64,000 nucleotides of DNA from Candidatus Hermodarchaeota archaeon (GTDB lineage Archaea; Asgardarchaeota; Hermodarchaeia; Hermodarchaeales; Hermodarchaeaceae): assembly GCA_016839805.1 (NCBI GenBank), contig JAEOTO010000022.1, positions 38,881 to 102,880 of the forward strand, given 5' to 3'. Below the pieces are notes generated by a model, which worked only from the letters and a program-made list of their open reading frames with translations, had not been told where the DNA came from and searched no databases. Shown one piece after another: positions 43,249 to 58,929 of the stretch (the stretch's first letter is position 1; the number at the start of each line of letters is the position of its first letter). A program made the position numbers and the translations under genes.

Positions 43249-43836
43249 ATGGAGCAAGACCCAGTGGGTTGGGTGTCTTCTGGAGATGTAAGTCTGCCCC
43301 GAAAAGCAGTTTTAAAGCTAATTGTGGTTGGGGAGGGCGGGGTTGGTAAGACAACACTAATTCATCGGTACCTCACTGGTAACTATCTGGATCAGCGTAT
43401 GACAGTGGGATCAGGATTTGCCACTCGAGATATCGAAGTTGAGGGTGTGGTTATTACCTTAGCCATCTGGGATTTTGCAGGGGAACAACGGTTCCGTTTT
43501 TTGATGCCTCATTATTGTCGTGGTGCTCTGGGGTGTATCCTGGCTTTTGATCTTACACGACTTACTACCTTCTATCATCTCGATGAATGGCTAAAAATTG
43601 TTCGTGAAAACACTGAGAATATTCCAATTATCCTAGTGGGGACAAAGGCTGATGTTCCATCAACGCAGCGTCAAGATGGTCAGCAATATGCCGAACTTAA
43701 TGGATTGGCTGGCTATCTAGAGACCAGTTCAAAGGATGGCATCAATGTAATTGAAACCTTTAATAATATCGCCAATCTGATGTGGAGTCGATTGACCACC
43801 TCTGAGCCAGTATCCATTGGTGCGTCAACTCCATAG
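43249..43836 (+). CDS. Rab-like small GTPase
   Basis: GEGGVGKT, TVGSGF, WDFAGEQRF, G4 variant TKAD, ETSSK. Confidence 0.93.
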   Translation: MEQDPVGWVSSGDVSLPRKAVLKLIVVGEGGVGKTTLIHRYLTGNYLDQRMTVGSGFATRDIEVEGVVITLAIWDFAGEQRFRFLMPHYCRGALGCILAFDLTRLTTFYHLDEWLKIVRENTENIPIILVGTKADVPSTQRQDGQQYAELNGLAGYLETSSKDGINVIETFNNIANLMWSRLTTSEPVSIGASTP

Positions 43837-45470: not shown

Positions 45471-46151
45471 ATGACAATTTTAGTCTCAGATTTAGATGGA
45501 ACGCTTCTCGATGTTCGTGACCGATTTGCGCGTTCACAAGTTAAAGTGCTTGCCCGTCTAGGTTATGAAGTGAAGGTAACTCAAGTCTATCCCCTCGTCC
45601 AATATACCATGGATGCCGACAAGTTTCTGGGAGCTTTAGATATCTCGTTATCCAACAGGAAACTCGTGCAATACTATTTGCATATTGAACAAGAATTTTA
45701 CAAGGGTTGGCAGCACTCACATGTATTTCCCGGTGCCATAGAAGCCTTACAATCTATTCGGCCTCGTCTAACTGCTCTTCGGCTCATTACCTCTCGCGCA
45801 TGGATCGAAGAAACTCGACGAGAAGTTAAGGCGTTCGGGCTAGACCAACTTTTTGACCAACACGTGTTCACCCGTGGTGATCTAGCCCGTGCAGAGGGAG
45901 TTGATGAGATACCCTTGTATCCCTATCTAGAACATCGACAACGACTCATCCAACTCTCTATTACCGATATTAAACCCCCAGACAACGTATGGGTGCTGGG
46001 AGATTCTCCCAATGAAATGCGGGCTGCTAAGGGGTTAAATTACATCGCTATTGGTGTCTTAACAGGATTCGCCTCAAAAGCTGATTTAGAACCCATCTGT
46101 GACTATGTAATCAATTCAGTCGCTGATATCACCACACTGATAGAATCCTAG
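45471..46151 (+). CDS. HAD-superfamily hydrolase (tandem paralog 1)
   Basis: DLDGTL, ITSR, LGDS..E. Confidence 0.9.
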   Translation: MTILVSDLDGTLLDVRDRFARSQVKVLARLGYEVKVTQVYPLVQYTMDADKFLGALDISLSNRKLVQYYLHIEQEFYKGWQHSHVFPGAIEALQSIRPRLTALRLITSRAWIEETRREVKAFGLDQLFDQHVFTRGDLARAEGVDEIPLYPYLEHRQRLIQLSITDIKPPDNVWVLGDSPNEMRAAKGLNYIAIGVLTGFASKADLEPICDYVINSVADITTLIES

Positions 46152-46200
46152 ATACTCAGAGTAGCAAAGCCTTTAACAGGCGCCTCGCTGTTGTTCCCTC

Positions 46201-46884
46201 TTGAAGATGACGATAAACGTATTCATATCAGATTTAGATGGAACTCTTATCGATACGCGCGAGAGAGTAATCCAGGCACACGTTGATGGTTTACACGCGA
46301 TTGGCTATCCTGTGGAAGTCACACAAGTTCGGTCTCTGTATCGGTTTACATCCGATGCTCGGGATTTACTCAGTCAGCTAAATCTCCAACTCAATGAGTC
46401 TGAGTTTATCAGATATCTTCGTGGATTTCGAGATTCCTTTTATGCTAACTGGGAACTCTCACAGGTTTTTCCAGGCGCTTTCGAGGCTCTTCAAAAAGTC
46501 CAATCAAAAGTAGAATATATGCGCTTAATTACCTCGCGACAGTATACGGATCAAACCAGCAAGGAAATCCAACGGTTCGGACTACATCGCCTTTTTGATA
46601 AAATCTTCACTCGTGGTGACCTAGCCCATGCAGAAGGGAAAGACAGAATTCCACTTTATCCCTTTGTACCCCACCGTCGACGACTCATCCAACTTGCCTT
46701 ACAAGACATCAAAGTGGATGGTGAAGTCTGGGTTGTAGGCGATTCAATGAATGAGGTCAAGGCCGCCCAGAGCCTAGGCTTAACAGCAATTGGCGTATTA
46801 ACCAGCTATAGCACTAAGGATGATTTAGCACCCTTCGCAAGGCATATAATTAACTCAATTAGTGAAATTGTGCAACTTATCTAA
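46201..46884 (+). CDS. HAD-superfamily hydrolase (tandem paralog 2)
   Basis: DLDGTL, ITSR, VGDS..E; visibly similar to 45471..46151. Confidence 0.9.
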   Translation: MKMTINVFISDLDGTLIDTRERVIQAHVDGLHAIGYPVEVTQVRSLYRFTSDARDLLSQLNLQLNESEFIRYLRGFRDSFYANWELSQVFPGAFEALQKVQSKVEYMRLITSRQYTDQTSKEIQRFGLHRLFDKIFTRGDLAHAEGKDRIPLYPFVPHRRRLIQLALQDIKVDGEVWVVGDSMNEVKAAQSLGLTAIGVLTSYSTKDDLAPFARHIINSISEIVQLI

Positions 46885-46902: not shown

Positions 46903-48390
46903 ATGATTATGTCTCCTCCTCCACAGCCCTCTAACCCACAGAGTAACAAATCCATTACTTCACGATTTGACACTCGACAATACCAAGAACACATTCTTCA
47001 ACGAATCAAAGAAAATCGCAATCAAAATATCTTGGTAGAATTAGACTGTGGCCTGGGGAAACGAGTACTCACCTATAAATTGATTACCGAACTTTTTCCA
47101 GACACCCGGTTTATCATCACTGTCAACTCCTCTTCCTCGCTTCAGGAAACCGCACAATATTTGGAAGAAGAGTATGGCGGGGTAGAAGGCCTAGGGGTGC
47201 TCTCACCTAGAGTTCGAGGACCAATTCGAATAAAACTCCTCCGTGAATCTCGGGTTGTTCTATGTACTGCGCGAGTACTAGCCAATATTCTGCGCAAGGG
47301 TGAGTTAACTCCCGACCGCTTCCAAGCATTACTCATTAATGAAGTAGACACAATTCTACGCCGGGTAGGACATAACCAGGTTCTCATTCAACCTTGGAGC
47401 TTTCTCCTCAATTTCTTTAAGGACCGCTGGATTATCGGGTTAAGTGGTACCCTTCGTGACGACCATGTTGTAATTAATGACGCTCAACTCCAAATCCGCA
47501 ATGAACTCCAAAGTCTGGCGGGCTTCATGACTAACGTCGAATTGATCAGCATGGATGAACTCGTTGATACTGACATGGACCAGTACATCAAACCCACAGT
47601 TCTTGACGTAGCACCAGTTCAAGATCCCGTGATCCGTGCCATAGCACTTGTCCTCGATGACCTCATCCAATCAACTCGTGAAGAAATCTATCAAGTGCTT
47701 AAGGAAGAAACTACTGAGCAAGTTGGTGCGCTACCCGAATCCACGCGATTACTACACTTGATGCTCCAGGAACTTCCCATCTCCGAAGAACTCGCCCAAC
47801 AATATAGTGGGTTGTTGATGGTTCGAAAATATCTCTACGGCATGTCAGCCAAGAGTTTTCGCCGTTACCTCTACCATCCTACCATCAAACCTCAAATTGA
47901 TGTCAAGCGGATGCAACAAGATTGGCCCAAAACCACACCGAAATCCATCGAAGCCCAAAACCTTACCCTAAAAGCTGGAAAAACCGTCATTCTCTCCTCT
48001 TACCTCAACGTTGTCAGCGAAATCGATACACTCCTCAAAGAAAAAGGCATTCAAACATTCAAACTTACAGGTCGAACCATGGACAAACAGGCAGTATTAG
48101 CCAAGTTCAAAGAGGTCAAACCACCGGCTGCTGTTATTCTTTCACCTGTGGGTGAAAGAGACCTCGATTTACCTGATACTGATTTGCTCATTATTTGTGA
48201 TACAGTAAATACGACAAAAACGATTTACCAAAAGATGAAACGGAGTCGTGGAGGGCGAGTAGTGTTCCTCGTTTACAGAGACACCTCTGAAGTTGGGAAA
48301 CTCCGTCGCTTAATCGATAACATCATGCAACGGTATCCCTGGTCAACTCAGCTTGGAAATACGTCTGCACTGAATGTGAAATTTAGTTAA
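46903..48390 (+). CDS. divergent SF2 helicase-like protein (Hef/Mph1/FANCM-like)
   Basis: Q-motif RQYQ, motif I variant LDCGLGKR, motif II variant NEVD, motif III LSGT, motif V GERDLDLP, degenerate motif VI QKMKRSRGG. Confidence 0.65.
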   Translation: MIMSPPPQPSNPQSNKSITSRFDTRQYQEHILQRIKENRNQNILVELDCGLGKRVLTYKLITELFPDTRFIITVNSSSSLQETAQYLEEEYGGVEGLGVLSPRVRGPIRIKLLRESRVVLCTARVLANILRKGELTPDRFQALLINEVDTILRRVGHNQVLIQPWSFLLNFFKDRWIIGLSGTLRDDHVVINDAQLQIRNELQSLAGFMTNVELISMDELVDTDMDQYIKPTVLDVAPVQDPVIRAIALVLDDLIQSTREEIYQVLKEETTEQVGALPESTRLLHLMLQELPISEELAQQYSGLLMVRKYLYGMSAKSFRRYLYHPTIKPQIDVKRMQQDWPKTTPKSIEAQNLTLKAGKTVILSSYLNVVSEIDTLLKEKGIQTFKLTGRTMDKQAVLAKFKEVKPPAAVILSPVGERDLDLPDTDLLIICDTVNTTKTIYQKMKRSRGGRVVFLVYRDTSEVGKLRRLIDNIMQRYPWSTQLGNTSALNVKFS

Positions 48391-49028: not shown

Positions 49029-49664
49029 ATGCCCCTGCCACAGAATATGCAACCAGACAACAATGATTCAAATTCAAGAAATAATGCGACATCAGAGAAA
49101 CTAACAGTGTATCCGGTGTATGTCTACCGGAGGACTTGTAAGCAAATATTCGATTTCTGCCTTCAAGAGGCAAAACGTAAACCCCCGCGTGAAGCGTTAG
49201 GTGTAATTCTAGGCTTCCGCCGGTCTTGGCAAGGTGAGAATTACATACGGGTCACTGATTGGGCGACAGGACGTGTTGAAGCTAGTATAGCGTATGCTCG
49301 ATTTACCCCAGAGGGTATTTTGGAATATCGCCTTGCATTACATGATCGGTACGGAGCGAATCCACATACCCCGCGGGTTGTTGGCCTCTGGCACTCTCAC
49401 CCTTTTGGTGGAGACCCTCACTTTTCATCTACTGATTTACGGACCTTCTTCAACACTCCCTTTTGTGCCGAAGGCAACGTGTTCTTTCTCATCGATCCCT
49501 TAAGTCGTATCTTCAAAGTTTACATGCTGCGTCCACGACTCGAAGAACCTGGTCTGCAACTCGAACGGGTTGATTGGTGTACGTATCAACCCTCGGTTCC
49601 TTTGGGTGATGCACCGCCAATCGAGGATCAGCTGCACGATGAGGAGCCTGTGGAAGATGAGTAA
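49029..49664 (+). CDS. JAB/MPN+ (JAMM) metalloprotease, putative Ubl-processing/deconjugating enzyme
   Basis: REALGVILG (catalytic Glu) and VGLWHSHP-x7-S-x2-D intact JAMM motif; LIDP. Confidence 0.92.
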   Translation: MPLPQNMQPDNNDSNSRNNATSEKLTVYPVYVYRRTCKQIFDFCLQEAKRKPPREALGVILGFRRSWQGENYIRVTDWATGRVEASIAYARFTPEGILEYRLALHDRYGANPHTPRVVGLWHSHPFGGDPHFSSTDLRTFFNTPFCAEGNVFFLIDPLSRIFKVYMLRPRLEEPGLQLERVDWCTYQPSVPLGDAPPIEDQLHDEEPVEDE

Positions 49665-50523
49665 GAAGAAGCCGACATCTATCGAATTACGGTTTTTTGA
49701 ACGTGACCAACATGATCGTACACGTCGTTGGTTAGGAGCGACTAACCTTGATACTATTCGACAATCCACTGTCCTTATGGTCGGGGCTGGTGCTGTGGGA
49801 AATGAAGTCTGTAAAAACCTAGGGTTGTTGGGTGTTGGGAAAATCATCCTTGTTGATCCTGATAAAGTTGCGGCATCTAATCTGAATCGGTGTGTGTTTT
49901 TCCGACCTGGCGATCATGATATTAAATTCAAAGTGGAGGCTGTAGCTGAGCGATTACCCGAACTCGCTACAACCACGGTGGTGGAACCACATGCGGTGCC
50001 AATCCAACACGCACCTGATACGGTGTGGGACGTGGATTTAGTTATCGTAGGTGTAGACAACCATTATGCCCGATACCTGTTGAATGCTAAGAATCTTAGC
50101 TTAGATCCCCCTCGCCTCATCATTAATGGGGCAATGGGGAAAGACCACATATCAGTAGAAGTCTTGGGTCCACCTCACACAGCCTGCATGATCTGTTCCT
50201 GGAGCAAAGACTTTGTAGACCATGTTGTAGCCAACGAAGTCCGCACTCAGTGCGACCCCTTTTTTGTGGACACAGTACCACGATTTCCCATGGTCAGCTT
50301 TGTGACATCCATCGTAGGCGCTGTCATGGCGTGGGAAGCCACTCGAGTTCTGGTTGGGTTGCAACAATGGCAGAATACTGGTCAATGGCAGCAAGGGCTC
50401 GAACCCGCATTTGGTCGGTTCATCCAATACAATCTTAGTAATCACCAGGCGAGTACTGGACCCATTATGCCCAATCCTCGATGCAGTGAAACCTTCTGCC
50501 GTGACAAACGCAAACACCTCTAA
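49657..50523 (+). CDS. ThiF/MoeB-family E1-like Ubl-activating enzyme
   Basis: VGAGAVG, D.D.V..SNLNR, K..A, GVDN..AR, CMIC, downstream Cys (TQCD, putative catalytic), C-terminal CSETFC; ATG at 49657 overlaps the JAB stop. Confidence 0.92.
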   Translation: MSKKKPTSIELRFFERDQHDRTRRWLGATNLDTIRQSTVLMVGAGAVGNEVCKNLGLLGVGKIILVDPDKVAASNLNRCVFFRPGDHDIKFKVEAVAERLPELATTTVVEPHAVPIQHAPDTVWDVDLVIVGVDNHYARYLLNAKNLSLDPPRLIINGAMGKDHISVEVLGPPHTACMICSWSKDFVDHVVANEVRTQCDPFFVDTVPRFPMVSFVTSIVGAVMAWEATRVLVGLQQWQNTGQWQQGLEPAFGRFIQYNLSNHQASTGPIMPNPRCSETFCRDKRKHL

Positions 50524-50538
50524 CAGACTGAGACAGAT

Positions 50539-52143
50539 TTAGATGAGTCCGATCGTTTTTTGCCATACTGTGGATGTAGGTTTCTGATCCGCCCAAAGTC
50601 GAAGATTCAAAATAACCTGTTTTGCAGCCTGAGGCATTGAGACGTTTAAATGCACGTTAACCGGTGCATTCAAACGTGGTGTAAACGGTTCAATTGCCAC
50701 GACCTGGTCCATCAATCCATCCGAAAGGGTGACCGTCATCACCATTTGATCAAGTGGATAAGATCCTGTCCGTGAAGGAGTTAATGAGACAGTCATAGGT
50801 AACCGACTCCCCCGAGGTACGGCATCAGGAACCTTCACATGAAGTTGTGCCGGGGCTGCACTTAGTCGAGGTGCCCCAGAATCAGGGACACTTATTACAC
50901 GGCTAACCTTCCAATTGGTGTTGATTTTCGGCTCCGATTTCCCGCGCTTCTTCTCGTCAATAAATTTCGCCCGATAATACCAACTTACTTTGAATTCTTG
51001 ACGAATCCGCGTATCCATCCAATTTCCAATAATCAATGGAAGATGACGATTGGTGACACCCAATAAACCCATTGATCCATGCCAGGTGGGATCAACAGGA
51101 ATCCATTGACCACGAAGCCAAATCTGACTCCAAGCATGGCGTTCCCACGCCTTGCCGTCAAAAGCCAATCCTGCTTCTAACCGGGCAGGAATTTTATTTG
51201 CACGGCACAACGCCGTAAACAACGCTGCATATTCTGTGCAATCCCCGACTTGATTTTCAATGGCATACGCTGCTCCCCTTTCATATTTTTGCGGGGTATA
51301 CCTCATCTTGTTAGTAACCGTCTGCATCGCAGCTTTAGTGTACTGAATTGGAGTTTTGTGCACCTTAGCTAGATCTCGGGCTAAGTCTTTGATTAAATGG
51401 TGGTGGCTTTCAATGAAGTTCTCTGGTTTCGTATATCGTTCGATATGCTGTGGAACCTCTGAACTAAGTGTGGTTGGGGGAAGATTGTATCGAACGGCAC
51501 GGTTGCGTACCAATGCTGTATAGCCACATTTGAACACTTTTCCTACCGGTAAGACGTCATGCGAAAATCGGATCCAGTTATTTCCGATGAGATCATTTTG
51601 TTCGCGACCTGATGTTGGAGAAAACTTAACATCGAGGATGTCCTGGCGAGGTGGTATCGATGGGGGCATCGCTATGAATGCGTTAATGTTTCCAATTTCA
51701 TATGGCGTACGATTCTTGAGGCTAACCGTATAGTTCACTCGGTGAATGACGATTGGTGGATGTCCAGCTTTAACAAAGAAGCAGCCCAAAACGTGGTGAT
51801 TATCTGGCGGGCCTTTGTTAGGGTCTTTGTCGACAACAAGCTTCTTGATTTTAGTTTCTTGAAATGCAACGAGAACGGTGTAGATGCCAGAAAGAAGGGT
51901 TTTCTTGGTTGGTAAGGAAAATTGTCCAAAATTCGTCTTGTCAAACCGGAAGGGTACTTTACTGATGGGCTTTCCAAAGGGATCGACGATATAGACTATA
52001 CCAGTGTCAATTTTCATGTTAGTGGTGACGGAACTGGTACGTGTCAGCTGAATAGTGATGGATTGACCAGCATTTACGCTTGGCATTCCATCATGACGGG
52101 ATGAAGTGATAATCTGCAAGGACACAGGAAGACCCTTTTTCAT
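50539..52143 (-). CDS. transglutaminase-like (Cys-His-Asp) protein with flanking beta-sandwich-like domains
   Basis: GDCTEYA.LF.ALCRA..IPAR, HAW, W.PVDPTW; ATGA overlap with the upstream gene. Confidence 0.85.
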   Translation of the reverse strand: MKKGLPVSLQIITSSRHDGMPSVNAGQSITIQLTRTSSVTTNMKIDTGIVYIVDPFGKPISKVPFRFDKTNFGQFSLPTKKTLLSGIYTVLVAFQETKIKKLVVDKDPNKGPPDNHHVLGCFFVKAGHPPIVIHRVNYTVSLKNRTPYEIGNINAFIAMPPSIPPRQDILDVKFSPTSGREQNDLIGNNWIRFSHDVLPVGKVFKCGYTALVRNRAVRYNLPPTTLSSEVPQHIERYTKPENFIESHHHLIKDLARDLAKVHKTPIQYTKAAMQTVTNKMRYTPQKYERGAAYAIENQVGDCTEYAALFTALCRANKIPARLEAGLAFDGKAWERHAWSQIWLRGQWIPVDPTWHGSMGLLGVTNRHLPLIIGNWMDTRIRQEFKVSWYYRAKFIDEKKRGKSEPKINTNWKVSRVISVPDSGAPRLSAAPAQLHVKVPDAVPRGSRLPMTVSLTPSRTGSYPLDQMVMTVTLSDGLMDQVVAIEPFTPRLNAPVNVHLNVSMPQAAKQVILNLRLWADQKPTSTVWQKTIGLI

Positions 52144-52532
52144 AATGCTTTTCCTTCATCATCTGGATCTGAATCGTTGGGTTCCCTCTCCTTATCTTGG
52201 AGAATAACTACTTTTCCTCCTTTCTTCTTTGGGGGTCCCATTCGCTGAACATTCCCAAGAATCACAATACTAGACCCTTCTTCACCCATCATTTCATCAT
52301 TTGTTGGTCGGGGACCAAGGAACTGGGTGAAATGAGGAGGGTGTGGTTCAACTCCTCTGACAATAGTTCCGGGACAGATACCATCTCCAGATTCTAAGAA
52401 AATCACTCGGCAGTTAGGGCACATATAGCTTCCACAGGTTGTGCAAATCCACCAAGTCCTTCGTGCTTCATCAAGTGGAACTTGGGCATCACAGGCAACA
52501 CATTTCATTTGTGAGGCGCCGTACACACTCAC
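52140..52532 (-). CDS. RING-like zinc-finger protein (putative E3) with disordered SIM-like tail
   Basis: CVAC-x15-CTTC-x4-CPNC-x11-CP...H; tail contains SIVIL and KVVILQD plus acidic residues. Confidence 0.65.
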   Translation of the reverse strand: MSVYGASQMKCVACDAQVPLDEARRTWWICTTCGSYMCPNCRVIFLESGDGICPGTIVRGVEPHPPHFTQFLGPRPTNDEMMGEEGSSIVILGNVQRMGPPKKKGGKVVILQDKEREPNDSDPDDEGKAL

Positions 52533-52756
52533 TCTTCAGGCTCCTCCTTATCTGGATGTTTGCGGGCTCGGTGAACTTTCACATCAAAATGAGGAGAAAA
52601 GTTTGGGGGACGTTCTTCTTCAAATGGAATATCCCGTTCTTCTAAGATGACGATACGATTCAATGAGGATGGGTGCTCTGATGGATCTTGATTATCCTTA
52701 TCAGATTCATGCTTCTCTTTTTCTACCTTAGGTGGGGGTTCCGTCATCTTGAGCAC
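52529..52756 (-). CDS. small acidic/disordered protein with RIVILEE motif
   Basis: 75 aa ORF abutting the E2 stop and overlapping the next start (GTGA); fills the operon gap. Confidence 0.55.
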   Translation of the reverse strand: MLKMTEPPPKVEKEKHESDKDNQDPSEHPSSLNRIVILEERDIPFEEERPPNFSPHFDVKVHRARKHPDKEEPEE

Positions 52757-53521
52757 CTAACTTTCTTCATCTTTATCAGAATTCTCTAGGATTCGGACTT
52801 TTGTTTGAAATCGCCTTTCCGGATCTTGGAGGATACGGGGAGGTCGTCGACTCGGGCTAGCTTCTGTGGATTGCGGTTCTAAAATTGTCACACGACCCTC
52901 TCTAGGTGGTGAAGGTGCTCCTATTTGGTGCCTTTCCTCCCAAAGACGCTCCAAAGTATTCACGATATTTTCTGAATCCTTCTCATACCAAGCCATTGCC
53001 ATACTGTTAAGCCCATGATCGGATTGGAATTGTGATGGTGGTTCAACACGATCAGGCTTTAGTAAAATAAAGAAAGGCAAGTCTTCTAGAATTCGATCCA
53101 ATTCTCCTCTGACTGAATAACATGCTTGTCCCTTTCCACTGGCAGCTAACCGGGGATGATAAAGCTGAGTTTCCGCTGCGGGACGAATCGAGCCAATATT
53201 TTGGGGATATTCTCGGGGAAGATCAAAGATAAACCGATGTTCATACTGAATGGCTCGCTGGTCGGTCAGCGTTCCTGGCTCATGAATATACCCGGGAAGA
53301 TTTCGCATAGTAAACTGAACGCGTTTATAGGCTCCATCTCGGTATCGGGCACTAATCGCGACCGTGAAATCAGAATTACTCCAACTAGTATCCTCACGCC
53401 GTGGTGGATCGGGAGGCCAACCCCGGCGTCCATACAAATTATTCATGGTATCAAAGAACGTCTGGATTTGTGTTTCGACTCGGGCGTTAAAGAGTTCCGG
53501 TGAAAACACTGGTCGTGTCAT
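52757..53521 (-). CDS. UBC/E2-like ubiquitin-conjugating enzyme
   Basis: F.FDLPREYP, TQLYHPRL...GQAC (HPN-like motif plus catalytic Cys), LN..A..WY; disordered C-terminal tail. Confidence 0.8.
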   Translation of the reverse strand: MTRPVFSPELFNARVETQIQTFFDTMNNLYGRRGWPPDPPRREDTSWSNSDFTVAISARYRDGAYKRVQFTMRNLPGYIHEPGTLTDQRAIQYEHRFIFDLPREYPQNIGSIRPAAETQLYHPRLAASGKGQACYSVRGELDRILEDLPFFILLKPDRVEPPSQFQSDHGLNSMAMAWYEKDSENIVNTLERLWEERHQIGAPSPPREGRVTILEPQSTEASPSRRPPRILQDPERRFQTKVRILENSDKDEES

Positions 53522-53580
53522 GATCTATCTCCACATCTACCTTGATTCCTCGGAAAGGATATTTAGTCAATTCTAAGATA

Positions 53581-53904
53581 TTAGAATCCCACTTCAGGCA
53601 CTACATCGAGGAGGAAGAACTCATCATCTGAAATTTTGGGATCTAGTTCGCCAAAGGTGGCACCAGGGCTTAGTCGAGTGGGTTCCGGGGCTTTGCGGAT
53701 TAAGACAAACTCAGGACGTTGGTCACCAATTTTTGCCTTCGCCCAATCGTCAATACTTACACCTTCATCTCGAGCTTGGGTGACGAGGGTGCGGATGACT
53801 TCTTCAACTCGAGTGTCTTCATCAATCCCAATGCGAAATTCCTTTTGGCGAGGTTCAACGTCAACAATGATTGAGCGCCAAAAACCTTCTTCACTGCTCA
53901 TCAT
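53581..53904 (-). CDS. ubiquitin-like (beta-grasp) protein ending ...PEVG-F
   Basis: Beta-beta-alpha pattern (IIVDV..FRIGI.EDTRVEEVIRTL); LSPGATFGEL...ISDDEFFLL echoes ubiquitin [20 protein letters not shown]; penultimate Gly; first gene of the E2 operon. Confidence 0.7.
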   Translation of the reverse strand: MMSSEEGFWRSIIVDVEPRQKEFRIGIDEDTRVEEVIRTLVTQARDEGVSIDDWAKAKIGDQRPEFVLIRKAPEPTRLSPGATFGELDPKISDDEFFLLDVVPEVGF

Positions 53905-54144
53905 AAGTTACCTCAAAGGGAAGACGTGTATCACCCACTTTAACTTTTCTTGATAATTAGCCCGCTTCTCGTCCCTGTTTATTCAAGAAAGAAATAAGGT
54001 CGGTTCCAAAACAAGTTTAAATGGCGCCTTGCTCTCCGGTTAAGTGAAAGTTTAAGAGTCACGGGCTAGTTTGAGCTAGTGAACTTAGTCATCGCATAAG
54101 ATGTAATTAACTACACAATAACCCGCGGGAGATTAGTCGGCGAA
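53905..54144. promoter_or_regulatory. divergent promoter region shared by the Ubl operon and the SMC operon
   Basis: 240-bp head-to-head gap with TATA-like elements (TTTAAC near 53939, TTTAAAT near 54016, TTTAAG near 54051). Confidence 0.45.
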
Positions 54145-57045
54145 ATGACACCTAGGCAAGAGCCATCACCCTCAATATCACCCTTAGTATTTCGTAAGCT
54201 ACGCCTAGTGAACTTTGTCATTCACCGTGATACAACCATTCAGTTGGATAGCGCTCCCATCACATTAATCACAGGTTCCAATGGCAGTGGAAAAACTCTC
54301 ATCCTCGATGCATTACTCTTTGCCATTGGGGTTGATTCTCGCCGCGCGCAACGGCAACGAAACGCGGCCTTCATTGGACAATTTGATAAACATGCTGAAG
54401 TCAATTTAGAACTCAACAACTTCCAACTCAACGGTCGGCGTGTCCTACGGAGCCCAGACCCAAGCTTATCAAAGCTCCTTAATAATGACGTAGTGACGAT
54501 TCGCCTTCGAATTTACCCAGGTAATCGGATCGCCTATTGGCTCAATGAGCAACGTTCCATCAACGGTCACCCGATAACCCGAAAGGATATCCGGAAACTC
54601 TTTCGAGCAGCTGGTCTTTTTGGTGACTCTCCTTTAGCCATTACAGAAGCAGAAACTTTAGACCATTTTGCCTCGCAATCACCTCGCCGCAAATTCGAGA
54701 CATTACTCAATGAAACCGGGTTACGAAACTGGATGGAGAAACTTGAAGAAGCCCGACTCCTAGTCCTTCAAGCCCAGGCAAACGTCAAACCCCTCCAATA
54801 TCGTATTCGACATGAAGAACAACGCCTTCAACTCTTAAAAACCGCCTACGCAGCCTTTCAACAAAAACAACAACTCCAAGAACGCCTCCAAGAACTCGAC
54901 CTTGAAGCAGCTTGGTCAGAAGTAGCTTATCGAGAAGGATTGGTTGAACAACTTCAATCGCAGATGAATGAAATTCAAGCTCAATTTACTATGGAACGTG
55001 AAAAATTAACAAAGCTTGATAATCGAAGAGCTGAACTCGTTTCAAAGTATGAAACTGTACAACAGCAACGACAAAAGCTTCAAACCACAATGGAGACAGT
55101 TCGCGATCAGCTTATGCAAGCGAAAGGACACCGGCTAGGACTCGAAAACGAACTAACCAGTGTCAATACGCAAATGAAACGTTACACAACAACCAAACGT
55201 CGAAAACCTGCGAAAACCAAACACGAGACTTTACAACGCGAATTTGCTGCTTTCACCAAGGAACGTGATGACCTTGATGATCAATTAGATAACTTGCGTC
55301 AAGATATCGCTTTCACAGAGGAGGAATTATTTACTACACCACAACGGTTTCCACGTTTCGAAGAAAGTATCCTGCGTGCTTGTCAACGATATCGTGAAGA
55401 ATTAGACAAGATCGCACTATCGGCTTCAGTAATTGGTCCTCTGTTCTCTCTTATACAGATGAAACGTGATTATGAGGAGTATGAAACTGCCGTCAAGCTC
55501 GCAATGGGTAGGTACACTTACGCATTCATCGCCTTGGATCGTAATGCTTTCAGTGAAGCTAAGAGCTTATTCGATCGCCTTTGGCCTTCTGAAAAACCAG
55601 ATTTAGTGGTAGCTCGGACCAACCCAACAACCGCGGTAACTCACGATCGTCCTGAAGTATCTCCACCTGTTTTTGGTTGGGCTGCAGATCTAATTGAAGG
55701 GGATGTTTATGCAGTTAGTTTTCTCAGTCGTGTTGTTAATACAGCAGTCGCTGAAGAATCTGCAGATCCCAACGAGTTAGTTGATGCCACCCAACAATTG
55801 AAAGGAAATATCATCACGAGTGATGGGACGAGTTTTTACCTGCGAATTGGGGCTTTCGCCCGACCACCTCGCCCTGTAACCGTCCGGTTATCTACTGCTC
55901 TCCGGGAATTAGGACTGACTCAGGAAAGTAGTGTAATTAGACAACGGCTTCGAAAATCACGAGAAGACGAAGCCCGTTTAATGCAAGATCGCATGCGCTT
56001 GAATTCTGAAATTAGCCAACTACGCTTACAGCTTCAGGATTTACGGCAAGCAGGTTCCGCTGCCTTATCTGATGAAGAACGCACCTCGATTCTAGTGGAT
56101 TTAGAACGGCGTTCAGCAGACCTGCAACAGCAGATACTAGAATTAGATGTACGCTGTGATACCCTTGCCCAAGATAGCCAGGTTTGCAATTCTGATATGC
56201 TTCCCTTAATTTCTCGAATGCAAAAGTTGGACAGACAATTAGAAAATTTAGATCATCGCCGGTCGCGGCGGACAGCTGAGGTTGAACGAATTACTGACGA
56301 ACTTCGTCAACGTGAGGAAGAATTTACACACCTCAATACACAAGTGAAAGAGTTTCGAAAAAATGCGGAGAAGCTGGGTAATCGTCCTGCAAGCATACGA
56401 ACCCCCTCGGCTGTAAGAGACGAGCAATTACAGCTTCAGGCAATGATTGAAACAATTACAGCGACGGCAGAGGACCTTCATGCCTTCGAAACACAAGAAG
56501 AAATTGTCCAACAACTTCATGATTACCTAAAAGAGCGTAAACTACATTTAGAAAATTTGATGACGGATGTCGACAGGCGCTTAATCAAATGGCGAGAAGA
56601 ACTCGAAACGACAATTGAGAAATTAAACCAGCGAATGAATCAACTCCTCAGCCACTTCCTCAAACAGGTAAAACTCCAAGTTCGGTATCCTGATGAACCT
56701 AGCCGGGCAGAACTGAATCTCCAACTAGCGATTAACCGGAAAGAACAATGGCGAACCTATCAAGAGATGTCTGGCGGCGAACGGGTCCTAGCCACCCAAA
56801 CCTTTATCCTCGCACTTCACACTTTGGCGAAAAGCCCTCTGCACGTTATTGATGAATTTACCCAACGATTAGACGAAGCTAGTCGGGCAGCAGTTCTCAG
56901 TGTGGTTCAACGTACTCTCGATTTAACTCACATTGAGACGCTCATTCATCCCCAGTTCCTACTTATGGCTCCCTCTACCGTTGGTCTTCAGATTCCAGAG
57001 ACCATGCATCATATCATTTTGCTCAAAGGACAGGTGAAACCATGA
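54145..57045 (+). CDS. SMC-family ATPase, Smc5/6-like
   Basis: Walker A GSNGSGKT; two long coiled coils; central hinge VIGPLFSLI...AVKLAMG...AF; signature MSGGER; Walker B HVIDEF; D-loop TQRLD; QFLLMAP. Confidence 0.88.
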   Translation: MTPRQEPSPSISPLVFRKLRLVNFVIHRDTTIQLDSAPITLITGSNGSGKTLILDALLFAIGVDSRRAQRQRNAAFIGQFDKHAEVNLELNNFQLNGRRVLRSPDPSLSKLLNNDVVTIRLRIYPGNRIAYWLNEQRSINGHPITRKDIRKLFRAAGLFGDSPLAITEAETLDHFASQSPRRKFETLLNETGLRNWMEKLEEARLLVLQAQANVKPLQYRIRHEEQRLQLLKTAYAAFQQKQQLQERLQELDLEAAWSEVAYREGLVEQLQSQMNEIQAQFTMEREKLTKLDNRRAELVSKYETVQQQRQKLQTTMETVRDQLMQAKGHRLGLENELTSVNTQMKRYTTTKRRKPAKTKHETLQREFAAFTKERDDLDDQLDNLRQDIAFTEEELFTTPQRFPRFEESILRACQRYREELDKIALSASVIGPLFSLIQMKRDYEEYETAVKLAMGRYTYAFIALDRNAFSEAKSLFDRLWPSEKPDLVVARTNPTTAVTHDRPEVSPPVFGWAADLIEGDVYAVSFLSRVVNTAVAEESADPNELVDATQQLKGNIITSDGTSFYLRIGAFARPPRPVTVRLSTALRELGLTQESSVIRQRLRKSREDEARLMQDRMRLNSEISQLRLQLQDLRQAGSAALSDEERTSILVDLERRSADLQQQILELDVRCDTLAQDSQVCNSDMLPLISRMQKLDRQLENLDHRRSRRTAEVERITDELRQREEEFTHLNTQVKEFRKNAEKLGNRPASIRTPSAVRDEQLQLQAMIETITATAEDLHAFETQEEIVQQLHDYLKERKLHLENLMTDVDRRLIKWREELETTIEKLNQRMNQLLSHFLKQVKLQVRYPDEPSRAELNLQLAINRKEQWRTYQEMSGGERVLATQTFILALHTLAKSPLHVIDEFTQRLDEASRAAVLSVVQRTLDLTHIETLIHPQFLLMAPSTVGLQIPETMHHIILLKGQVKP

Positions 57046-57839
57046 TGGATACTAATGATACCTCAGTACATCGCCGTGTTTTTTCTGATCGTAAGATATG
57101 GCGAAAAACCTCGAAACGAAATTACAAGAAATATCGTGTCCCCTCTTATGGTACAAAGAGTGTCATCATCACTCTTTGGGATTTAACAAAGAAATACGAA
57201 ATTGCCTTGAAGCATAAAGAGGTATTTCCGATCAAAGAGTCTGAGATTGACCGTGAAGAAGTCACTGATGCATTTCATCTCCTGGAAACTCCTTGGGAAC
57301 GAAATCTTGATGGTCGATTTTATCACACTCTTTCCACTATGGTCCATCGCCGTGATTCTCAACTGGCTACCCCTGAAATCACATCCGAGCAATGGATTCA
57401 TCAGTTCGCAAATGTCGTCAAACGTCGGGCAACCCCATTACTTTTTCTTATCAGCCCTGAGCGATCCGTGCCACCTTTTGATCTACCACCAGTTGATTCT
57501 CCTGTCACACTAGCTGAACCACCTTCCCGTGATGACCGCATCGCATTGCAGAAGCATAAAGTGCCATTCGAAGAAGTTTCATTCACCTCATTAGAAACCC
57601 GGCGGAGTAGATTAGTCAAACGTTTACAGGGAAAACGATTCAAGTACTCGGAGTTAGCTGACCATCTCTCCAATTGGGAACTAGACCTTCTTAGCCAGAT
57701 GATCCGGGATAATTCCTTACCAGCGATTTTTGATAAAACCTCGGTAACGTTTCGTGAAGTGGCGTTCTCCAAATCAAATTCTGCATTCTCAGCTGTGGCA
57801 ATTGCAGCAAAGAAGTACGAGGAGGTCACGTCGCAATGA
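57042..57839 (+). CDS. putative kleisin (ScpA/Nse4-like) subunit
   Basis: Directly after SMC with ATGA overlap; helical N-part, Pro-rich linker, C-terminal winged-helix-like VSFTSLETRRSRLVKRL...FKYSEL; assignment is mostly positional. Confidence 0.45.
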   Translation: MMDTNDTSVHRRVFSDRKIWRKTSKRNYKKYRVPSYGTKSVIITLWDLTKKYEIALKHKEVFPIKESEIDREEVTDAFHLLETPWERNLDGRFYHTLSTMVHRRDSQLATPEITSEQWIHQFANVVKRRATPLLFLISPERSVPPFDLPPVDSPVTLAEPPSRDDRIALQKHKVPFEEVSFTSLETRRSRLVKRLQGKRFKYSELADHLSNWELDLLSQMIRDNSLPAIFDKTSVTFREVAFSKSNSAFSAVAIAAKKYEEVTSQ

Positions 57840-58477
57840 CAACAGATCCAGCAGAACCTAAAGATACAACTCTTGTGATAGAAGAAGCAGAAGATGAAGC
57901 ACTGGAACAACGCCATCTCCTAGGTCAACTCTTTGCCGCACTCACAGCTCGATATCGTGATGATGATGGCCATCTGAATGTCGGTGTAAAACGCCAAGAT
58001 TTACTTGAAGCACTCCACGTAAATAAGACCGGGTTAAACCGCCTTCTCGACCTGCTCCGCCAACAAATTACATCACTCGGGCTGGAACTTGTTGAATATC
58101 GCCTTGGTCGAGACACCCTCTATTGCATTCGAACACTCTATGGTGTTCCCGGGGAACTCACAGATCCTGAATACGCAGTCTTAGGTGTCATTATTGCCAC
58201 CATTGAGCAGGCAAGCAAAAGGCGGCGACCTCGTCGAATTGCCACAAAAGATCTCGAAACTATGCTAGTAGCCCGGGGGCGAATTTCCCGCTACCAACTG
58301 GATCGAATTCTACGCCGGCTCATCGAATTAGGTTATGTCACCCGAACTGCTCGATGCATCGCCTATGGACCACGCTTAGAACTAGAATTTGATGCGGAAC
58401 GCCGTGAAGCCATCGCGAGTGCTGCCACAATATACCTTGCTGGAGCCATCGCCCAATCAGAAGGTGACACCGAATGA
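57836..58477 (+). CDS. KITE-family tandem winged-helix protein (Nse1/Nse3-MAGE/ScpB-like)
   Basis: L...I.SLGLELVE, LT..E.A.L..I, L.RL.ELGYV and YGPRL.LE resemble Nse1/MAGE WH-A/WH-B motifs; ATGA overlap. Confidence 0.65.
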   Translation: MTTDPAEPKDTTLVIEEAEDEALEQRHLLGQLFAALTARYRDDDGHLNVGVKRQDLLEALHVNKTGLNRLLDLLRQQITSLGLELVEYRLGRDTLYCIRTLYGVPGELTDPEYAVLGVIIATIEQASKRRRPRRIATKDLETMLVARGRISRYQLDRILRRLIELGYVTRTARCIAYGPRLELEFDAERREAIASAATIYLAGAIAQSEGDTE

Positions 58478-58929
58478 AACTCGATTTATCAACGGTGGGC
58501 ATCTCTTGTGTCGCCTGTGGAACACGGACTACATTAGAACATGCTATCCAGGAGGGCTGGCACCAATGCCTTCGTTGCCAGTTTTTCATCGACCCCCAAT
58601 GCCTCCACATCGTTCAAACTACAATGGGAGGCGTGTGTCCAGCTTTCAGTCAAGGAGTTCCACGCCACACGCTTCAACCCGCGGACATCCCCTCCGAACA
58701 AATCTTAATCTTTGTGAAAGATCAATATCAAAAAGGTCGTGTCGGGGCCCTCATAGATACTCTCTTTTACACACAACGGCTCCCTCTCTCTCCACCTCAA
58801 CATGACTCAAAATATAAAGGGCCTTCCGAAGAGCCGCTGACCCGTGAAGAGATTTGGCAGCGCTATGGCTTAGTATTGGTACGAAGGGCTCACGGAAAAT
58901 GGGTCACTTGGGAAAAAATTCTATTTTAA
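58474..58929 (+). CDS. RING-like zinc-finger protein, paralog of 52140..52532
   Basis: CVAC-x16-CLRC-x4-DPQC-x11-CP...GV..H; ATGA overlap with the KITE gene. Confidence 0.6.
   Translation: MKLDLSTVGISCVACGTRTTLEHAIQEGWHQCLRCQFFIDPQCLHIVQTTMGGVCPAFSQGVPRHTLQPADIPSEQILIFVKDQYQKGRVGALIDTLFYTQRLPLSPPQHDSKYKGPSEEPLTREEIWQRYGLVLVRRAHGKWVTWEKILF

Follow-up and report, generated by a model that had tools for sequence, protein, structure and literature searches.

The two RING-like proteins encoded in the window, a 64,000-nt stretch of a Candidatus Hermodarchaeota archaeon genome (GCA_016839805.1, contig JAEOTO010000022.1, positions 38,881 to 102,880, forward strand), are paralogues, and we somewhat favor the reading that they are two E3s for one private, Val-Gly-ending ubiquitin-like protein (Ubl), one bound to an SMC complex and the other free, in the manner of SUMO ligases. 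This reading builds on observed paralogy, gene order, distribution and motif conservation, together with modeled folds and a modeled contact between RING1 and the E2; the catalysis and the RING2 partners that it invokes are presumptive. Ancient RING paralogues would have divided labor around a single modification system. Judging from homology, a JAB protease would trim the Ubl to its Val-Gly end, an E1 would activate it and a divergent E2 would carry it on Cys134. RING1 would act as the free E3, with its RING on helix 1 and loops 4/7 of the E2, and its SIM-like tail motifs may hold the Ubl in a donor, backside or substrate-bound state, as in SUMO ligases that combine an SP-RING with a SIM. RING2 would be a fixed subunit of an SMC5/6-like complex, probably docked on the kite protein via its C-terminal module, and would recruit the charged E2 to this complex or to its DNA-bound clients, the role of the Nse1 RING or Nse2 in eukaryotes.

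The relevant genes lie in three runs. The + strand encodes the JAB/MPN protease (49029..49664, identified by homology) and a ThiF-type E1 (49570..50523), whose true start is probably downstream of the listed one, the calls in relatives being 288 aa. The – strand encodes a transglutaminase-fold protein (50539..52143; Pfam Transglut_core, E = 6e-22), RING1, an acidic protein of 75 aa that carries a single SIM-like motif (52529..52756), the E2 (52757..53521) and the Ubl (53581..53904); the RING1 stop overlaps the transglutaminase start, and the RING1 start overlaps the stop of the 75-aa gene. The SMC operon, which includes RING2, follows on the + strand. All of the encoded parts are small and soluble-looking.

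Paralogy, zinc ligands and fold of RING1 and RING2

RING1 (130 aa; 52140..52532, – strand), a candidate free E3 with a C7H RING-like domain and a disordered tail, and RING2 (151 aa; 58474..58929, + strand), a candidate SMC-bound subunit that combines a RING-like domain with two helices and a conserved hairpin module at its C-terminus, occupy the ORFs quoted in the original prediction. The paralogy claimed there proved significant and extended past the ligands. BLASTP aligned the two proteins at 32% over 57 aa (E = 7e-7), and profile-profile comparison gave a probability of 96% (E = 2.3e-9). When run against the 24,053 six-frame ORFs of this genome, each domain HMM matched only the gene of the other (E = 6e-7 and 1e-6), and the next-best matches had E values of 0.5 and 0.06. 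With the eight ligands fixed, the non-ligand residues scored 25, compared with a shuffled mean of –41 (SD 12; 0 of 20,000 shuffles equaled it).

The predicted zinc ligands are C11, C14, C30, C33, C38, C41, C53 and H64 in RING1 (52341..52502, – strand) and C12, C15, C32, C35, D40, C43, C55 and H65 in RING2 (58507..58668, + strand), the latter domain being assigned from conservation and a structure model. All eight are conserved in both families as seven Cys (or His/Asp) and an invariant His; His/Asp substitutions are confined to ligands 2 and 5, which belong to one site, and ligands 3, 4, 7 and His8 are invariant. This conservation supports the late His as the eighth zinc ligand, as had been proposed. 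The shared GVxxH motif in which it was placed held only in part: the His is kept in both families and the Gly in RING1, but the rest is not general. The Asp noted at ligand 5 of RING2 is present here but restricted to Hermodarchaeia (16/16), the other lineages having Cys. An Asp ligand at this position has been described in RING-D types (PMC3166285) and therefore has precedent. The terminal C-x2-C pair of canonical RINGs is absent from both proteins, in which Cys7 is followed by Pro and then, 9–11 residues on, by His; because the last ligand pair is rearranged, no positional equivalent of the linchpin Arg/Lys after the last ligand can be assigned. We regard the domain as an Asgard RING variant and infer from the RING fold that ligands 1, 2, 5, 6 and 3, 4, 7, His8 form a cross-brace. 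Among known domains, it resembles the C4C4 (RING-C2) domains of CNOT4/Not4, cellulose synthase (zf-UDP) and TFIIH p44. In the alignment, the first seven ligands are spaced as in the cellulose synthase RING, and Pro follows ligand 7, but the C4C4 domains end in CxxC where the proteins described here have the late His.

Both structure models were confident (for RING1, pLDDT 92–95 at residues 11–70, with a low-pLDDT tail), and they point to the RING/U-box-like fold that had been predicted, with modest Z scores. Almost all of the top 50 VIA matches were RING, U-box or SP-RING entries (Z 4.0–5.6), led in both cases by 3lrq (RING1: Z 5.6, rmsd 3.1, 62 aligned; RING2: Z 5.5, rmsd 6.2, 73 aligned). 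Every score was below Z 6, and the zinc fingers of ZZ, p44 and Slx1, which are not all E3s, tied with the RINGs. PHD and FYVE entries did not appear in the top 50 for either model, which does not by itself exclude those folds; Pfam FYVE and B-box matches fell below the cut-off. Foldseek returned no match with E < 0.001 for either model, and among its non-significant RING2 entries the PHD domains had an rmsd of about 10 Å, compared with about 3 Å for RNF4. For neither RING did single-sequence searches of Pfam/NCBIfam or narrow-alignment searches of the PDB yield a match above the cut-off; the Atlas feature search with RING2 gave only leads below 0.9, and the Atlas structure search gave a TM by query below 0.4. 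Among PDB sequences, the RING1 profile matched the RNF4 RING best (E = 0.003, single domain), and Pfam zf-UDP was matched by 16 of the 29 members of the RING1 family, with a best E of 9e-5.

In a phylogenetic tree, RING1 of Hermodarchaeia and of family f21 clustered at 99/97, separately from RING2, and a recent lineage-specific duplication was accordingly rejected. The tree rests on 70 columns with a long stem and a bootstrap that had not fully settled, seven rows off the ligand pattern having been excluded; since it has no root, we make no claim about the order of duplication events. RING1 and RING2 are old, specialized paralogues, and the domain is also present in unrelated fusion proteins.

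RING2 and the SMC5/6-like operon

The SMC operon encodes a 966-aa SMC5/6-related ATPase (54145..57045), a 265-aa protein in the kleisin position (57042..57839), a tandem winged-helix kite protein resembling Nse1/Nse3 (57836..58477) and RING2, all on the + strand. The SMC family profile was closest to Smc6 chains (E = 1e-46 to 7e-45), followed by Smc4 (2e-33) and Pyrococcus Smc (4e-31). Members of the kite family matched Pfam only weakly (SMC_Nse1 in 3/25, best E = 0.002; MAGE in 2/25, E = 0.001). The 265-aa protein had no kleisin match in Pfam; its conserved position makes it a putative kleisin.

Genetic linkage of RING2 to the kite and SMC genes was strong. In Hodarchaeales and eight Asgard families, the kite gene of the Smc6-like operon is followed by RING2, always directly (47/47 complete loci), and the pair is kept even where SMC and kleisin have been inverted away, as on two contigs, one of them from Hodarchaeales. 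The two are separate genes in all 47 loci; no fusion was found among proteins of 313–2000 aa (not 265–312 aa), which is weak evidence, and no kite domain was found among representatives of length-unrestricted RING2 matches. These data support one option of the original prediction, namely one RING on the SMC and one free, RING1 lying outside the SMC operon. Its view of the duplication as the most direct link between the two operons was not supported, because the duplication is old, the domain recurs in unrelated fusions and other lineages show the direct order SMC-kleisin-kite-RING2-JAB-E1(-Ubl-E2). In f5, f10, f20 and f21, JAB(-E1) directly follows RING2, and in f21 RING2 and JAB-E1-Ubl-E2 form one run.

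RING heterodimers of paralogues are common, and RING1 and RING2 are encoded together in f21 and in Hermodarchaeia (18/18 with RING1), as an obligate heterodimeric E3 of the Slx5-Slx8 or RING1B-BMI1 style bridging the operons would predict. However, RING2 stands alone in f5, f10, f17 and f18 and in Heimdallarchaeaceae, where two of the genomes are single contigs, and RING1 tracks the transglutaminase gene rather than RING2. The heterodimer suggested earlier is for the former reason not supported, and we consider it improbable.

RING2 is also retained in genomes that yielded neither this E2 nor this Ubl (Heimdallarchaeaceae, 0/11; f17, 0/1; f18, 0/3), and therefore has a role independent of both; canonical E2s are present there. 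This is consistent with an alternative that falls well short of likely but carries appreciable weight, in which RING1 is the sole E3 for this system and RING2 either serves the SMC complex as a zinc subunit with a structural or DNA-binding role, comparable with the TFIIH p44 finger, or uses a canonical E2. The tie of p44 and ZZ domains in the fold search also agrees with it, as does the location of the most conserved non-ligand residues of RING2 in the RING2-specific C-terminal module (58840..58911, + strand; E125, E126, W128, G132, V134, R138, G141, K142 and W146), a candidate docking surface. Against it stand the RING2-JAB-E1 order in four families, and f5 and f20, whose (incomplete) genomes have E2, Ubl and RING2 with no RING1 found. 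In addition, the E2-facing helix position of RING2 is hydrophobic (V/I/F/W) in all E2-bearing lineages, whereas in Heimdallarchaeaceae, the single contrast, it is mixed or polar and the loop is shorter.

RING1 with the E2 and the Ubl

The Ubl ends in Val-Gly plus one residue; V104-G105 is invariant, and Val-Gly is terminal in other lineages. Its language-model neighbors were beta-grasp families, and no PDB sequence matched it. Homology matches of the E2 were weak and mixed; it has HPR, with Arg replacing the Asn of HPN, an invariant Cys134 and SIM-like motifs in its tail.

The RING1 tail, C-terminal to the RING and of low pLDDT, carries two predicted SIM-like motifs, I89–L92 (52257..52268, – strand), with V/I89 and L92 at least 90% conserved, and V108–L111 (52200..52211, – strand), also conserved. 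The motif occurred 49 times in 26 RING1 tails, compared with a shuffled mean of 5.7 (maximum 13), the pattern being narrow and defined after the sequences had been seen and the genomes being related rather than independent; it was not enriched in RING2.

A model of RING1 with E2, Ubl and zinc scored 0.64, compared with 0.37 in the best of three controls, an unrelated one, and passed a mark reached by 58 of 80 solved pairs and 2 of 110 mismatched pairs, a calibration that is only rough here, with our own alignments and zinc riding along. One of the three runs gave 0.30; the runs agreed in at least 33% of contacts, and partner pLDDT was at least 64. The modeled interface (RING1 11–17, 40–50 and 52–58 on E2 4–21, 104–107 and 140–142) is a canonical RING-E2 contact, in which loop 1, the helix and loop 2 of RING1 lie on helix 1 and loops 4/7 of the E2. 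The pass may reflect likeness to solved RING-E2 structures. As for the E2 binding proposed earlier, engagement by RING1 is supported in silico. In the best ternary model, RING1 106–114 lies on Ubl 22–30 and 34–42, placing the second motif on the beta2/alpha1 groove. With the E2 swapped out and RING1 and Ubl retained, a control scored 0.01. It is thus the E2 contact that carries the score of the full model, and the SIM placement gains no separate support from it, which is not evidence against binding.

The tandem SIM-like motifs beside a RING, with RNF4 as best sequence match, also recall STUbLs, and, next to ESCRT genes, the genome separately encodes a canonical E2, an E1 and a small RING. RING1 could then be a cross-talk ligase whose motifs read the private Ubl and which attaches a second modifier via the canonical E2. 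We regard this as quite improbable, however, as RING1 is encoded in the operon of the divergent E2 and modeled on it; its ligand set differs from that of RNF4, and a RING followed by a SIM is the SUMO-ligase layout, the reverse of RNF4, whose SIMs are N-terminal (PMC12751080). RING1 is always directly upstream of the transglutaminase gene in Hermodarchaeia and 10 f21 genomes, even 7–11 kb from the E2. It might accordingly serve mainly as an adaptor for that enzyme, a deconjugase or acyl-transfer partner, and not as an E3, which we find very improbable given the canonical E2 interface of the model and the transglutaminase genes without RING1 in f4, f5 and f20.

Relation to SMC5/6 and known modification systems

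Nse1 (NSMCE1) likewise has a kite followed by a RING-like domain beside a Smc6-like ATPase, and its RING (2ct0) was near the top of the fold matches (RING1: Z 4.8, rmsd 2.4, 57 aligned; RING2: Z 4.3, rmsd 3.3, 58 aligned). However, Nse1 holds both domains in one chain and has the ligand pattern C4HC3, whereas here kite and RING2 are two genes, ligand 5 is Cys/Asp, ligand 8 is the late His and RING2 carries an extra 85-aa module. SP-RING SUMO ligases (Nse2/Mms21, Siz/PIAS) share with RING1 a RING-type domain plus SIM-like tail; the position of RING2 matches that of an SMC-bound stand-alone ligase, Nse2 entries tying at Z 4.3–4.8. In these ligases, a SIM in a flexible downstream extension serves the same modifier that the E2 carries, but the SP-RING binds one zinc (PMC12751080). 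In contrast, RING1 and RING2 have eight conserved ligands, the copy with the SIM-like motifs is the one encoded away from the SMC genes and the Ubl, with its Val-Gly end, is not recognizably SUMO.

Both the RING of Nse1 and the SUMO ligase Nse2 have been treated as eukaryotic additions to SMC5/6, the former being called absent from archaeal kites (bioRxiv 10.1101/2024.01.07.573240). In Asgard lineages, Hodarchaeales among them, the kite gene has a RING gene tied to it, and the paralogue RING1, with its RING-plus-SIM layout, stands beside a complete E1/E2/Ubl/JAB set. These observations hint that the coupling of SMC5/6 to protein tagging seen in eukaryotes has archaeal roots and raise the question of whether SMC5/6-linked tagging and SIM-based readout predate eukaryotes. 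A more specific scenario, which we rate as rather unlikely, is that SMC5/6 in the Asgard ancestor of eukaryotes already included a RING subunit and that this ancestor also had a SUMO-like modifier read by SIMs; RING2 would then have given rise to the Nse1 RING when it fused with the neighboring kite, and RING1 would exemplify a RING-plus-SIM ligase design older than eukaryotes. Even without common descent, both the RING ligand arrangement and the archaeal modification system would be undescribed; our literature search, with most subscription papers outside its scope, found no description of these RING proteins, the SMC-RING link or the SIM-like motifs.

The Ub/E1/E2/srfp/Rpn11 operon of Caldiarchaeum subterraneum also combines Ubl, E1, E2, JAB and a small RING, and the E2 and RING surfaces that matter in its E2-RING pair (PMC5654768) are the same as those in the RING1 model. 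Its srfp is a RING-H2 and its ubiquitin ends in di-Gly, whereas the system described here has a Val-Gly Ubl, an HPR-type E2, SIM-like tails, a transglutaminase and the SMC link; a canonical-type set sits elsewhere in this Hermodarchaeota genome.

Two related RING-like domains

Two genes for RING-like proteins were predicted in divergent operons of the window, and both were recovered as open reading frames read from the sequence: RING1 (130 aa, 52140–52532, minus strand) and RING2 (151 aa, 58474–58929, plus strand). Pairwise alignment of the two proteins gave a match of 32% over 57 residues (E = 7e-7), the family profiles matched each other with a probability of 96% (E = 2.3e-9), and each domain HMM retrieved only the other RING gene among the 24,053 six-frame ORFs of the whole genome. 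When the eight ligands were kept fixed, the non-ligand residues scored 25, compared with –41 ± 12 for shuffled sequences (0 of 20,000 reached 25). The predicted kinship is thus not confined to the cysteines but extends past the ligands.

Both families follow the ligand pattern C-x2-[CHD]-x15/16-C-x2-C-x4-[CD]-x2-C-x8-11-C-P-x7-9-H, in which the late His, originally suggested as a possible ligand 8, is invariant. Substitutions occur solely at ligands 2 and 5 (numbered in sequence order), which would share one common zinc in a cross-brace. Asp at ligand 5 is limited to RING2 of Hermodarchaeia and has a precedent in RING-D types (PMC3166285). The zinc domain was modelled with a pLDDT of about 90–95 in both proteins; structure searches returned RING, U-box, SP-RING, ZZ and p44 domains, tied at Z values of 4.0–5.6, and Foldseek with both models gave no significant match. 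The modelled fold cannot separate Nse1 from Nse2 or other RINGs.

In their candidate function, RING1 and RING2 would work in the manner of RING E3s. They differ from Nse1 in their ligands and in the lack of a fusion, from SP-RINGs in having eight ligands, and from canonical RINGs in lacking the last CxxC. The Nse1 RING and Nse2 have been regarded as eukaryotic gains (bioRxiv 10.1101/2024.01.07.573240). Our literature search found no paper on the RING1 or RING2 proteins; what is new here is how old the two copies are and how they divide their labour, together with the modelled RING1–E2 interface.

Distribution and gene order

The RING2 profile matched in 68 of 400 Asgard genomes, mostly within eight families, and the kite gene directly precedes RING2 in all 47 complete loci examined. 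On a Hodarchaeales contig and one further contig, kite and RING2 are still paired, with SMC and kleisin inverted away. One RING2 homologue (L102:537–1085), on a short contig where it has no kite or SMC neighbours, retains the C-terminal module and has lost several zinc ligands.

RING1 was present in Hermodarchaeia (18/18) and in family f21 (labelled Heimdall-/Gerdarchaeota), and its sequences from these two groups formed a single clade (support 99/97) in a tree with a short alignment and a long stem. RING1 and RING2 are old, specialised copies. A transglutaminase gene always directly follows RING1 in both groups; that RING1 is an adaptor for this enzyme seems highly improbable. The transglutaminase is about 534 aa long in the window (50539–52143), but several close relatives have a version of about 290 aa; in Heimdallarchaeaceae it lies 5–8 kb from the SMC operon, though E2 and Ubl were not found there.

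RING2 occurs without RING1 in Heimdallarchaeaceae (two single-contig genomes included) and in families f5, f10, f17 and f18, which argues against an obligate heterodimer; we consider a RING1–RING2 heterodimer, as raised in the original prediction, improbable. The E2 and Ubl of the window were present in f1, f5, f20 and f21 and were not found in f4, f10, f17 and f18, many of these genomes being incomplete. That RING2 is structural, or works with a canonical E2, is rather unlikely.

In f21, SMC, kleisin, kite, RING2, JAB, E1, Ubl, E2 and the acidic protein form one run on a single strand, and RING2 and JAB (with or without E1) are adjacent in f5, f10 and f20. Other Asgard sequences (L070:1504–2514; P0123, P0124, P0128; P0113–P0115, P0120, P0121, P0131; P0102–P0110) carry the RING-like domain in fusions with small GTPases, with SWIM-like domains or with helical proteins. 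Because the domain also occurs in such unrelated fusions, gene order is stronger evidence of a link between the operons than the duplication, which had been put forward as their most direct tie.

RING1, the E2 and the modifier

We modelled a complex of E2 (residues 1–200; gene at 52757–53521, minus strand), Ubl, two zincs and RING1 (residues 5–118). The model scored 0.64, compared with 0.37 for the best control; of the solved complexes, 58 of 80 reach the score mark, as do 2 of 110 mismatched pairs, a calibration only roughly valid for this model. Across runs, at least 33% of contacts agreed, and partner pLDDT was at least 64. In the model, loop 1, the helix and loop 2 of RING1 sit against E2 helix 1 and its loops 4 and 7, the surfaces that the Caldiarchaeum cascade required on reconstitution (PMC5654768), and in the best run RING1 106–114 lies on the beta2/alpha1 face of Ubl. 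Since similar complexes have already been solved, this pass may reflect likeness rather than binding.

RING1 tails contain a psi-x-I-psi motif about twice each (49 matches across 26 sequences, against a mean of 5.7 and a maximum of 13 in shuffles); kin sequences are not independent, and the narrower pattern was picked once the data had been seen. The motif is conserved across lineages while its flanks shift from acidic to basic. Each E2 tail has two or more copies and the acidic protein has one, while the same count against shuffles showed no enrichment in RING2. Several SWIM-type fusions of the RING-like domain also bear a V-K-I-I/L motif.

On balance, we lean towards RING1 and RING2 both recruiting the E2, as E3-type proteins, for a single Val-Gly Ubl, with RING1 free and RING2 on the SMC5/6-like complex. 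RING1 would hold the modifier by its SIM-like motifs, and RING2 would dock on the complex via its conserved C-terminal module. The RNF4 RING was the best PDB sequence match of a broadened RING1 profile (E = 0.003); a role for RING1 as a STUbL-like cross-talk ligase appears quite improbable.

Genomic setting

The plus operon reads SMC, a 265-aa protein, kite and RING2, with successive genes overlapping by ATGA. The SMC family profile scored Smc6 chains highest (E about 1e-46), followed by Smc4 (2e-33) and Pyrococcus Smc (4e-31); kite gave weak matches to Nse1 and MAGE, and the 265-aa protein is a candidate kleisin from its gene position alone. The minus operon (Ubl, E2, a 75-aa acidic protein, RING1 and transglutaminase) faces JAB and E1. 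Ubl (53581–53904) terminates exactly at Val-Gly in several lineages and carries 0–3 extra residues in Hermodarchaeia, which fits trimming by JAB.

Apart from the SMC5/6-like operon, the same genome encodes a canonical SMC–ScpA–ScpB set. Outside the window, contig C47 (1–6686) carries a canonical-type E1 fragment, an E2 (UQ_con, E = 1e-34), a small RING, a UEV protein and ESCRT/Vps4-like genes, and this cluster is a second modification system in the genome. Given both sets, the window locus would be a second, private one. On contig C22 (79729–84671), the canonical SMC has ScpA- and ScpB-like neighbours.

Upstream of JAB lies a helicase-like gene with degenerate motifs (46903–48390), and the f5 genome has a gene like it close to the region of the SMC operon (L061:10222–11601). 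The window also contains two tandem paralogues of HAD-family hydrolases (45471–46884) and a Rab-like small GTPase (43249–43836).
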